From the IMG/VR virus record IMGVR_UViG_3300045988_007834: DNA of 40,630 bases. One strand, 5' to 3'. Origin of the DNA: a virus. Below, piece by piece: positions 2,984 through 29,409 of the stretch (position 1 is the first letter of the stretch; each line of letters starts with the position of its first letter). The position numbers were made by a program, and so were the translations under genes. The notes beneath the pieces are model-generated. The model saw only the letters and a list, made by a program, of their open reading frames with translations, was not told the origin of the DNA and ran no database searches.

Positions 2984-4123
2984 ATGGCTGAAACTAATCT
3001 CATCAAGAAAAATGATCTCGCGCGTGAGCGCGAAATGGAGTTTGTCGACCAGTTCGGCTATTCCATTAAGAAGCTCGTCGAGGCGCTCGGTGTGACCAGA
3101 AAGATCCCGAAACAGGCTGGCACTGTGCTGAAAGCCTATAAGGCAACCGGTACGCTCGAAAGCGGCATCGTTGGCGAGGGAGAAACTATTCCGCTCTCCC
3201 ATTACAAGGTTGAGCCTGTGAACTATGCGGAGATCACCCTCAAAAAGTGGCGCAAAGCTACGTCTGCGGAGGCAATCACCGACCGTGGTTACGATCAGGC
3301 CGTCGAAATGACTACCACCGAAATGCTCCGTGATGTGCAGCGCAGCATCCGCAAGAGCTTCTTCGATTTCCTTGCGACCGGCACTGGCGCTGTGTCCGGC
3401 AAGGACTTTCAGAGCGTGCTTGCACAGGCGTGGGGCAACCTTCAGGTTCTCTTTGAGGATGACGAGATCGGCGCGGTCTACTTCCTCAATCCGCTGGATG
3501 TTGCTGACTATCTGGCGAGTGCGAACATCACGCTGCAGACTGCGTTCGGAATGACCTACGTCGAGAATTTCCTCGGCCTTGGTACTGTGATCCTAAATTC
3601 CAGTGTTCCGAAGGGCAAGATTTACGCCACTGCGAAGGACAACATCGTCCTCTACTACATCCCAGTAAATGGTGCCGACCTCAACGAAGCGTTTGCGTTT
3701 ACGTCCGACGCGACCGGATATATCGGTATCCATGAGCAGCCGGACTATACCAATATGACCGCCTCTGACACGGTCGTCAATGGTATGGTTCTGTTTGCGG
3801 AGCGCCTTGATGGTGTTGTTGTCGGCTCGATTGACAACGGTACACTTGGTGCGCTGACCGTGACGTCCGCGGCTGGTACCGCTACTGGCGACACAAAGCT
3901 GACTGTTTCCCCGGCGAAGTCCGCAAAGGGCAACAAGTACAAGTATAAGTCGGCGGAAACCACGGCTCCAATCGTTGTATACGGAGAGAACGTGCAGAGC
4001 TGGAACGACTGGGATGGCAAGTCTGATCTCACTATCACGAGCGGTCACAAGGTCACTGTTGTTGAGTGCGATGGCAACTTCCGCGCACTGAAATCCGGCA
4101 ACGCAACCGTTACCGTAAAGTAA
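2984..4123 (+). CDS. Major capsid protein (HK97-fold type) with a C-terminal Ig-like domain
   Basis: 379 aa, positioned after the scaffold gene, with strong RBS AAAGGAG. The C-terminal ~90 aa (LGALTVTSAAGTATGDTKLTVSP...ATVTVK) look like a Big_2-type Ig domain. Confidence 0.8.
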   Translation: MAETNLIKKNDLAREREMEFVDQFGYSIKKLVEALGVTRKIPKQAGTVLKAYKATGTLESGIVGEGETIPLSHYKVEPVNYAEITLKKWRKATSAEAITDRGYDQAVEMTTTEMLRDVQRSIRKSFFDFLATGTGAVSGKDFQSVLAQAWGNLQVLFEDDEIGAVYFLNPLDVADYLASANITLQTAFGMTYVENFLGLGTVILNSSVPKGKIYATAKDNIVLYYIPVNGADLNEAFAFTSDATGYIGIHEQPDYTNMTASDTVVNGMVLFAERLDGVVVGSIDNGTLGALTVTSAAGTATGDTKLTVSPAKSAKGNKYKYKSAETTAPIVVYGENVQSWNDWDGKSDLTITSGHKVTVVECDGNFRALKSGNATVTVK

Positions 4124-27475: not shown

Positions 27476-28146
27476 ACGTCGTCTACAACGTGGATTGCTT
27501 TGAATATATGCGCAGTCTGCCAGACAAGGCATTTGATCTGGCTGTGGTCGATCCTCCGTATTTTTCCGGCCCCGAACGGCGCGGCTACTACGGGAACAAA
27601 GTAAGCTCCATCGGCGTTCATCGTGATTATCCAATCTCCCCAAAGTGGGATGTGCCGCAGGCCCCATATTTCAAAGAGCTGGACAGAGTGGCGAAGAAGT
27701 ACATCGTATGGGGCTGCAACTACTTCTACTATCACTTCCCCGCCGGGCGGATCGTGTGGGACAAATGCAATGCTTCCAGTTCATTCAGCGATTGTGAGAT
27801 TGCCGCCACAAACTGCCATGACAGCGTTCGTCTATTTCGCTTTATGTGGAATGGGATGTGTCAGGGAAAAAGTATCGTAGAAGGTGCGGTCATGCAGGGA
27901 GACAAACGCAAGAACGAAAAGCGTATCCATCCCACGCAAAAGCCAGTCGCGCTTTACGAATGGATCTTCAGCCGCTACGCAAAACCGGGAGACAAAATCC
28001 TCGACACCCATCTTGGCAGCGGAAGCAGCCGGATCGCGGCGTATGACGCCGGTTTGGATTTTGTGGGATGCGAGATTGACAGTCATTATTTCGAGGCACA
28101 GGAAGAACGCTTCGCAGCGTATACGGCACAGGTGGCGCTATGGTGA
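27472..28146 (+). CDS. N6-adenine/N4-cytosine DNA methyltransferase (DPPY, beta-class order)
   Basis: VVDPPYF comes early. IHPTQKPVALYEWIF and LDTHLGSGSS come later. Confidence 0.85.
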   Translation: MNVVYNVDCFEYMRSLPDKAFDLAVVDPPYFSGPERRGYYGNKVSSIGVHRDYPISPKWDVPQAPYFKELDRVAKKYIVWGCNYFYYHFPAGRIVWDKCNASSSFSDCEIAATNCHDSVRLFRFMWNGMCQGKSIVEGAVMQGDKRKNEKRIHPTQKPVALYEWIFSRYAKPGDKILDTHLGSGSSRIAAYDAGLDFVGCEIDSHYFEAQEERFAAYTAQVALW

Positions 28147-28346
28147 AGCCGCCGTGTGAGAGGAGCTGTCCGCGGCGGACAGTGGGATGCCACACCAAGT
28201 GTGCGCCTTATCTGGAATATGAGGAAGCGAAACAGGCGGAATATCGGGCGAGAGAAGTCGAACGGAGCCGCGACGCCTACACTGCGGATGCAAAGAAGCG
28301 GTGTAAGAGCGTGGAGAGATTACGGAAAGTGGGATTACTGAAATGA
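28140..28346 (+). CDS. Small Cys-rich hypothetical protein
   Basis: 68 aa. CERSCPRRTVGCHTKCAP, then a charged helix. Confidence 0.45.
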   Translation: MVKPPCERSCPRRTVGCHTKCAPYLEYEEAKQAEYRAREVERSRDAYTADAKKRCKSVERLRKVGLLK

Positions 28347-29098
28347 CGCATCTGAGTTTATTTTCGGGAATCGGCGGACTTGATCTTGCTGCGGAATGGG
28401 CAGGATTTGCAACCGTTGGGCAATGCGAATTTGCAGATTACCCAACAAAAGTGCTGGAAAAGCACTGGCCGGATGTGCCACGCTGGCGTGACATCCGGAC
28501 TTTGACGAAGGAGAGTTTTTATGAGCGGACAGGCCTACGAACAGTTGACGTTATTTCCGGCGGATTCCCATGCCAGCCCTTCTCCGTGGCTGGAAAGCAA
28601 AAGGGCAAAGGGGATGATCGATACCTCTGGCCGGAGATGCTCCGAGTTATCACCGAGCTGCGCCCACGTTGCGTTGTCGGTGAAAACGTTTCTGGACTTG
28701 TTCGAATTGCGCTTGCGGGAATCCTTTCCGAACTGCAAGGCGTCGGCTACGAAGCAAGGGCTTACAGTTCTGCGGCTTGGGATGTCGGCGGACTGCACAA
28801 GGGAGAGAGAATCTTTATCGTGGCCGCGGCCAACGACGGGCGCGCCGCTGTGCGGCGGAACACACAACTTCCGGCAGATGGTGGCACTGAGAGACGCGGG
28901 GGTCGTCACGGAGGAGGAGCGGAAAAACCTGACCTGTGGAAGCGGTGGGAAGTCGAACCCCGCCCTTATGGAGTGGCTCATGGGATTCCCAATCGGGTGG
29001 ACAAGCTTAAATGCCTCGGAAACGCGGTAGTGCCGCAGCAGGCATATCCGATTTTCAAGGCATTGGCGGAAGAATTGCAGAGGGAGGATTTGTTATGA
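28343..29098 (+). CDS. DNA (cytosine-5) methyltransferase (small phage type)
   Basis: LFSGIGG (motif I), GGFPCQPFS (IV), ENV (VI), GERIFIV (VIII) and LGNAVVPQ (X). Confidence 0.85.
   Translation: MTHLSLFSGIGGLDLAAEWAGFATVGQCEFADYPTKVLEKHWPDVPRWRDIRTLTKESFYERTGLRTVDVISGGFPCQPFSVAGKQKGKGDDRYLWPEMLRVITELRPRCVVGENVSGLVRIALAGILSELQGVGYEARAYSSAAWDVGGLHKGERIFIVAAANDGRAAVRRNTQLPADGGTERRGGRHGGGAEKPDLWKRWEVEPRPYGVAHGIPNRVDKLKCLGNAVVPQQAYPIFKALAEELQREDLL
28521..29030 (+). CDS. Embedded out-of-frame ORF (169 aa) inside the C5-MTase gene, with its own RBS and family-like motifs
   Basis: AAGGAG (28508..28513) lies 7 nt before ATG 28521. Motifs are QLTLFPADSHASPSP, TSGRRCSEL, WPRPTTGAP and NPALMEWLMGFPIGWT. 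Confidence 0.4.
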   Translation: MSGQAYEQLTLFPADSHASPSPWLESKRAKGMIDTSGRRCSELSPSCAHVALSVKTFLDLFELRLRESFPNCKASATKQGLTVLRLGMSADCTRERESLSWPRPTTGAPLCGGTHNFRQMVALRDAGVVTEEERKNLTCGSGGKSNPALMEWLMGFPIGWTSLNASETR

Positions 29099-29409
29099 AT
29101 TTGAAACCGAAGGATGAATCGACCTGCATCGGTGTGCTATTCAAGCATTGCATTGACCAGATCGAGCGCGACCAGAAGGAGCTGGCCGCGCTGCGGGAGA
29201 AATTACCGAAGTGGATCAGTGTGAAGGAAAGACTGCCAATAGACCATCTCAAAAAATATCTCGTTGCTTTTCGGGATGCGGGCGGCTCGATTGTAGATAT
29301 GGCCAGATACATCCCGAGCGACGGATGGACGTGCGATAATTGGGACGTACCGCAGAAATTGATTACCCACTGGATGCCGCTGCCGGAAGCGCCGAAGGAG
29401 GTGGAGTGA
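29095..29409 (+). CDS. DUF551-like protein
   Basis: The C-terminal ITHWMPLPEAP is the DUF551 signature. ATGA overlap with the upstream stop. Confidence 0.55.
   Translation: MNLKPKDESTCIGVLFKHCIDQIERDQKELAALREKLPKWISVKERLPIDHLKKYLVAFRDAGGSIVDMARYIPSDGWTCDNWDVPQKLITHWMPLPEAPKEVE

Follow-up and report, generated by a model that had tools for sequence, protein, structure and literature searches.

The locus described here raises the question of which of two overlapping reading frames carries the function of a viral C5-cytosine methyltransferase gene, and over which parts of the gene. In the window, i.e., the whole stretch of 40,630 nucleotides that was analysed (IMG/VR virus record IMGVR_UViG_3300045988_007834), the methyltransferase gene in frame A (28343..29098, + strand, 251 aa), hereafter alpha, wholly contains a second same-strand ORF in frame B, which is A+1 (28521..29030, + strand, 169 aa), hereafter beta. 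A sequence-only reading of this DNA had listed three explanations: a true overprinted gene, a methyltransferase whose target-recognition segment is read in the other frame by way of two frameshifts or two indel errors, and an ancestral frameshift relic. Inspection of the sequence and of the ORFs bore out its description of the locus, namely both ORFs with their coordinates, the AAGGAG-N7-ATG start of beta, the peptides WEVEPRPYGVAHGIPNRVDKLKCLGNAVVPQ in frame A and QLTLFPADSHASPSP, TSGRRCSEL, WPRPTTGAP and NPALMEWLMGFPIGWT in frame B, and two dual readings of the same nucleotides, GIPNRVD (A) with GFPIGWT (B) and IVAAAND (A) with SWPRPTT (B).

The ATG of beta lies 178 nt into alpha and follows, after a 7-nt spacer, the Shine-Dalgarno sequence AAGGAG (28508..28513, + strand), the bases of which are at the same time Lys-Glu codons of alpha. 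Just 5' of this signal, a frame-B TGA (28503..28505, + strand), conserved at +160 of alpha, shuts frame B, and the open block of frame B begins at +163 of alpha in most relatives. At the position of the beta start (+178), 71 of the 103 distinct in-register loci have ATG and 28 have TTG; the Shine-Dalgarno core precedes the start in 94 of these 99 ATG/TTG loci, across 42 different alpha peptide contexts. For example, the alpha change Tyr to His keeps the ATG of beta, and Tyr to Phe gives TTG.

From this start, the N-terminal ~100 codons of beta (28521..28820, + strand), which are open, weakly constrained and predicted to be disordered, shadow alpha motifs IV-VIII; motif IV, PCQPFS (28568..28585, + strand), with the alpha catalytic Cys77, is read there as DSHASPS. 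The functional module of beta, W101-T161 (28821..29003, + strand), comprises WPRPTT, GAPLCGG, a variable, putative recognition segment and the motif-IX-like element NPALMEWLMGFPIGWT (28956-29003, + strand, frame B). Opposite this module, the alpha linker (residues 166-225; 28838..29017, + strand) is merely open in frame A, and its last part, EPRPYGVAHGIPNRVD, overlaps the putative motif IX of beta. Alpha ends with motif X (GNAVVP) and the C-terminal helix (29018..29095, + strand), within which the stop codon of beta falls (TAG, 29028-29030).

By profile matches and predicted structure, alpha is the catalytic large domain of a C5-cytosine methyltransferase with a motif X helix and a linker of ~60 residues. 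The match of frame A to Pfam PF00145 (8.4e-36) is confined to residues 1-167, as is that to TIGR00675 of NCBIfam, and this stretch covers motifs I-VIII; the match to phrog_363, 'DNA methyltransferase', extends over the full length (6.5e-76), and alpha aligns to positions 208-378 of phrog_116. In the AlphaFold (AF2) model, pLDDT is ~70-96 for residues 1-165 and ~77-84 for the C-terminal helix (residues 230-250); it is below 50 for linker residues 166-227. The model matches M.HhaI and M.HaeIII (E ~1e-13) over ~180 of ~327 columns, which represent the large domain. [quoted passage not shown] The pre-X element EPxxxRVAxGxPxRVDRLK is conserved in frame A, and alpha might keep some DNA contact of its own through the conserved alpha-frame stretch EPxxxRVAxGxPxRVDRLKxLGNAVVP.

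The frame under selection was read from periodicity, defined as pairwise substitution counts between gaplessly aligned relatives by codon position. In the window's own group of loci, the most variable position over alpha nt 1-495 is the third codon position of alpha. Over alpha nt 496-675, the most variable position is the third position of beta, and the alpha third position is among the least variable; from alpha nt 676 onward, the alpha third codon position is the most variable again. This A-B-A periodicity is repeated in two independent architecture groups (n=21 and n=6) and in 62 distinct loci stacked on motif IX, in which alpha identity to the window ranges from 36 to 100% and the return switch to alpha lies 3 nt before GNAVVP, at +44 relative to motif IX. 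The amino acid identity over nt 496-675 is 0.64 for beta versus 0.42 for alpha, and alpha is higher elsewhere; over the N-terminal part of beta, it is 0.31 for B versus 0.46 for A. It should be noted that one locus (L158), grouped with the window by coordinates, is out of register upstream, and dilutes rather than changes the periodicity and identities of the window group. The alpha linker shows no A-frame periodicity. Thus, alpha is selected for motifs I-VIII as well as X, and beta for its C-terminal ~65 residues (WPRPTT, GAPLCGG, the variable stretch and NPALMEWLMGFPIGWT). The earlier impression that the frame-A segment ANDGRAAV...GGGAEK looks off-frame agrees with these data: the segment has no amino-acid-level selection, and its pLDDT is below 50.

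In the window, the same 60 bases (28956-29017) encode the motif-IX-like element of beta, NPALMEWLMGFPIGWT, and the conserved pre-X element of alpha, EPRPYGVAHGIPNRVDKL, and a G-x-P is read in both frames from GGGATTCCCA. The two elements are not superimposed in the staggered relatives (see below) or in the group with a 119-nt spacing; the window represents the most compact form.

The conservation of this layout was assessed in 160 alpha-related loci fetched from viral and genome collections, which are phylogenetically related to each other. Alpha identity in the related loci is 33-99%, the loci stem from Bacillota, Actinomycetota (Mycobacterium, Streptomyces, Micromonospora, Longispora), Bacteroidota, Acidobacteria and others, and isolate and complete genomes are represented, as is a 99%-identical IMG/VR viral contig (L010). 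The strict motif EW[LM]MG[FY]P was found in the +1 frame relative to PCQ in 106 of 170 loci, usually exactly 47 nt 5' of GNA[VI]VP in frame 0. Relaxing the motif gave 130 nested loci among the 161 complete ones, under a definition of the nested type that included frame A being open to motif X, and 2 staggered loci; several of the others are pattern misses only. Both frames are open in three loci with a called B-like protein, in which alpha has 309, 289 and 323 aa and beta has 169, 203 and 240 aa; all three had been called in frame B, and the N-terminus of alpha had been left without a call. In Paenibacillus phage Lily, the dcm gene of which is 45% identical to that of the window, the nested ORF is annotated (LILY_63, 'g62 internal gene') and matches phrog_1008 (5.8e-44). 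When phage genomes were searched by tblastn with B, every match lay inside a dcm gene of these relatives and was offset by +1 as in the window; in plasmids, matches lay only inside annotated dcm genes, with no separate annotation of beta.

These data bear on the possibility that the second frame is an artefact or a relic, i.e., that two indel errors split a single gene, or that B is a non-functional shadow ORF mirroring the conservation of frame A. That all tblastn matches of B lie inside dcm genes is compatible with a shadow, as is the shadowing of motifs IV-VIII by the first 100 residues of beta, where FPCQPFS reads DSHASPS and GENV reads VKT. Sequencing error is excluded because the same layout occurs in more than 100 independent assemblies across distant relatives, including isolate and complete genomes. 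A mirrored frame is contradicted by nt 496-675, where B is conserved above A and B-frame periodicity persists down to 36% A identity. We consider an artefact or relic extremely improbable; in particular, the ancestral relic of the sequence-only reading is rejected, since frame B is under clear purifying selection.

Outside its selected part, a frame is simply held free of stops. Of 104 distinct loci, 100 have no stop in the 106 beta codons that lie under motifs IV-VIII. Synonymous shuffles of A yield a mean of 3.3 stops in these codons, with a median probability of zero stops of 0.015; the +2 frame over the same stretch has a mean of 6.1 stops. Conversely, in none of the nested loci is alpha interrupted by a stop within the beta-coded region, which was in part a selection criterion, and shuffles of beta predict a mean of 2.8 stops there; in some relatives, the open alpha linker reaches ~280 codons. 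The 4-fold sites of alpha diverge modestly less within the overlap (0.47 versus 0.60), which suggests at most a weak extra constraint on the N-terminal part of beta. A chance ORF, for which an absence of homologues and stop codons in close relatives had been named as the signs, can be dismissed given the stop-free N-terminal codons and 732 called homologues of beta, of 165-246 aa, in a large protein database. Selection in frame B, the conserved Shine-Dalgarno sequence and start, and openness beyond chance support a true overprinted gene.

The A-B-A path of the selected frame is also exactly what would be expected of one polypeptide made by two programmed ribosomal frameshifts, from A to B after motif VIII and from B to A before motif X, and rare fusion proteins of the A-to-B or B-to-A type exist in the database. 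We searched for a canonical slippery heptamer (X_XXY_YYZ) near 28838 or 29018 and found none. Such a polypeptide would require neither the ~100 codons over which B is open before the switch, nor the 50-280 codons over which A is open through the target-recognition domain (TRD); the Shine-Dalgarno sequence and start of beta are conserved, and the fusion proteins (P0012, P0020, P0070, P0071, P0081) are singletons. The beta start of its own, the openness of both frames and the lack of a slippery site argue for two separately initiated polypeptides rather than a doubly frameshifted single chain, which we rate as very unlikely. The second explanation in the sequence-only reading was accordingly half right: selection places the recognition segment in frame B, as proposed, whereas two frameshifts or two indel errors are at odds with the Shine-Dalgarno sequence and start of beta, the open frames and the recurrence in more than 100 assemblies.

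Single indels that fuse or displace the frames were found in ~10 loci, about 6% (L028, L032, L041, L047, L048, L052, L054, L055, L057, L097); these and the database fusions are likely pseudogenes or assembly errors. Seven of these loci (L028, L041, L047, L048, L054, L055, L097) have motifs IV and IX in frame 0 and motif X in +2, two (L032, L052) have motif IX in +2 and motif X in +1, and L057 is an indel variant as well. In some of the indel variants, the N-terminal half of alpha is fused in frame to the beta TRD and motif IX, with motif X in the third frame; in others, alpha is truncated.

The product of frame B matches phrog_1008, 'DNA methyltransferase' (3.7e-13), with the functional module aligned to positions 259-282 of that family. 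In the AF2 model of beta, pLDDT is 37-53 over residues 1-100; a small helical module follows (residues 101-165, pLDDT 61-82). The middle of beta differs between relatives in length and in the number of WPTPTA-type units, and this variability in length and module content makes it TRD-like; NPALMEWLMGFPIGWT is nearly invariant and under B-frame selection. Other searches were negative. Neither frame B nor its C-terminal 70 residues matched PF00145 in Pfam, and neither a chimera, A(1-161)+B(100-162)+A(222-251), nor the betas of two staggered relatives (L105, L065) extended the PF00145 match into motifs IX and X. NCBIfam gave no match to B or to the L105 beta, a sequence search of the PDB with a B-family profile and the L105 IX-X segment gave nothing significant, and Foldseek with the beta model returned noise only (E > 1), as expected from a mean pLDDT of 55. 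The Pfam miss at motif IX reflects insensitivity of the model, because PF00145 also misses motif X in frame A. The identification of motif IX in beta is a putative one, based on motif resemblance and PHROG alignments. The resemblance of the frame-B peptides to NPxFVEWLMGFPxGWT and LLPTPTA, pointed out in the sequence-only reading, proved to be a good lead.

In the two staggered relatives, L065 and L105, alpha is truncated after motif VIII, and a single +1 frame, that of a 369-388-aa beta, holds a long TRD, NPDWVEWLMGFPxGWT, a linker and EPxxPRVxxxxxxRxxRxKCLGNAVVPQ, so that the two elements that overlap in the window stand in tandem there. The staggered beta matches phrog_1008 (5e-47), and its IX-X segment aligns to positions 446-495 of phrog_116. 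Taken with the alignment of the window alpha to positions 208-378, this suggests that alpha and beta map to consecutive parts of one canonical enzyme.

A different arrangement was seen in L099 (and L043), with an alpha of 445 aa: beta stops ~450 nt before motif X, and a second +1-frame ORF of 72 aa with a CxxC...CxxC pattern (MAMAEKTAPVKRCPVCGALMVRKRYNGRLEDMGAFLRRVYCSRKCMAKGY...) lies inside the alpha linker, at ~+790..+1006 from the alpha start. Either a third nested gene or a cassette that has been inserted may account for this ORF. In L006 (GCA_021769865.1), the region 3' of the methylase (3171-4121) encodes a 316-aa protein with dozens of 'GNA[RW]VYG / GDA[MR]VYG' heptad-like repeats, and the antisense strand of this repeat gene carries a mirror ORF of 'RRPWHC' repeats.

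The staggered relatives are relevant to the question of whether beta belongs to the methylase at all. Alpha could be a small Dcm that works by itself with a minimal recognition loop, and beta a genuine overprinted protein with another job, e.g., in regulation or anti-defence. Annotations routinely present alpha-type proteins as complete methylases, frame A conserves the element EPxxxRVAxGxPxRVDRLK, which is also in frame in the staggered variants, and the missing Pfam and NCBIfam matches of beta point in the same direction. However, no stretch of alpha between motifs VIII and X is structured or conserved, beta closes with an element that resembles motif IX, and in L065 and L105 the same beta is continuous with motif X behind a truncated alpha, a link between beta and the methylase itself. 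Moreover, the characterised precedent M.EcoHK31I needs both chains for activity (PMC2836561, PMC3404938). On balance, we find a self-sufficient alpha unlikely, if less so than a double frameshift.

We consider it quite likely that the product of the two nested same-strand genes is a heterodimeric C5-cytosine DNA methyltransferase of the M.EcoHK31I type. Under this heterodimer reading, alpha would contribute the motif X helix and the large domain (motifs I-VIII), which binds AdoMet and performs catalysis, and its ~60-residue linker would have a single requirement, the absence of stop codons. Beta would be started at its own Shine-Dalgarno sequence and ATG, run through the ~100 weakly constrained codons that shadow motifs IV-VIII, and then encode the small domain, with a variable target-recognition segment (WPTPTA-type units) and motif IX (NPxxxEWLMGFPxGWT), before ending inside alpha motif X. 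The data show both ORFs, how they are conserved, where each frame is selected and the fold of alpha; translation of beta, assembly of the two chains into one active enzyme and the need for both are what we infer from these data, and beta is probably the DNA-recognition, or specificity, subunit. The enzyme would presumably act as an orphan phage methylase that shields phage DNA from host restriction.

We also lean, with less assurance, toward a broader conclusion, namely that the phage and prophage 'small Dcm' methylases of a clade that spans phyla (phrog_363-like, with thousands of database members) are as a rule built with a nested beta. In this clade, beta would be the specificity subunit, with motif IX and the whole TRD, and cassettes for recognition that differ widely in length would be exchanged in the overprinted frame, where alpha is only stop-free; annotation pipelines would misannotate obligate heterodimers as single-chain enzymes, or call beta and not alpha. 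In L005-L009 and among the database proteins P0001-P0120, metagenome gene callers often pick the nested beta and leave the N-terminus of alpha uncalled, with a gap of ~180-330 nt.

The neighbourhood in the window is consistent with a tightly packed cluster of orphan phage methylases. An N6/N4 DNA methylase gene (PF01555; 27472-28146) lies just upstream of alpha, a 68-aa Cys-rich ORF (CERSCPRRTVGCHTKC; 28140-28346) overlaps both of its neighbours by a few bases, and downstream a DUF551 gene (29095-29409) overlaps the end of alpha by 4 nt.

Since beta is usually unannotated and neither Pfam nor NCBIfam has a model for it, the single-chain label may be wrong for a large class of phage methylases. 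If beta carries the recognition domain, specificity prediction and heterologous expression of 'small Dcm' genes must include the hidden ORF, and the family would offer natural split methylases with exchangeable recognition subunits; split methylases have been sought as tools for targeted methylation (PMC2836561). If the broader conclusion on the clade is correct, few same-strand overlapping gene pairs of prokaryotes would be as long (170-300 codons) or as widely conserved as this one. The locus is also clean and deeply conserved: either frame is under selection over its own part of the gene and simply left open over the other's, and the case can serve as a benchmark for methods that detect dual coding.

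Motif IX of single-chain C5-cytosine methyltransferases has the pattern R-x-L-x-P-R-E-x-A-R-[LV]-[QM]-G-[FY]-P-D, and the beta sequence L-N-P-x-x-x-E-W-L-M-G-F-P-x-G-W resembles this motif of M.HhaI and M.HaeIII. The large domain of these two enzymes superposes on the alpha model. In both, one chain in one frame holds the TRD together with motif IX, whereas alpha accounts for no more than the ~180 of ~327 columns given above. Among the uncharacterised entries, the window alpha falls in phrog_363 and the window beta in phrog_1008; these families and LILY_63 differ from the present description in that they have annotation labels only ('hypothetical protein', 'DNA methyltransferase'), with no subunit role or mechanism attached.

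The overwhelming majority of the C5-cytosine methyltransferases that have been characterized are monomers, with M.AquI and M.EcoHK31I as exceptions (PMC3404938). In M.AquI (Agmenellum quadruplicatum, CYCGRG), alpha has motifs I-VIII and beta has part of the variable region and the later motifs (PMC3404938). The relatives L065 and L105 share this staggered layout, with TRD, IX and X of beta in +1; the window differs from it, because its motif X is back in the alpha frame, beta stops inside that motif, and the gene is fully nested.

M.EcoHK31I (E. coli HK31, YGGCCR) is the closer counterpart. As described in PMC2836561 and PMC3404938, it is a C5-methyltransferase of two polypeptides, in which beta, with motif IX, is encoded in another frame inside the gene of alpha, with motifs I-VIII and X. 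The nested other-frame beta is the layout that the window's ORFs A and B share with it, in a comparison made by architecture. Its subunits, reportedly of 309 aa (alpha) and 176 aa (beta) in the 1995 work of Lee, Kam and Shaw, are similar in size to those of the window (251 and 169 aa). The N-terminal residues of its beta are partly dispensable (PMC2836561), which is reminiscent of the weakly constrained, low-confidence first 100 residues of the window beta. The two systems differ in that the TRD of M.EcoHK31I is assigned to alpha in the literature, whereas in the window the variable, selected region is in beta and its alpha counterpart is unconstrained filler. They also differ in context, since M.EcoHK31I is a member of a restriction-modification system, whereas the window presumably encodes an orphan phage or prophage methylase, beside an N6/N4 methylase gene. 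In the limited literature searched, we found no prior description of nested beta genes in phage methylases. The nested two-subunit architecture itself is already known from M.EcoHK31I; its wide spread in an unannotated phage and prophage family may be new.
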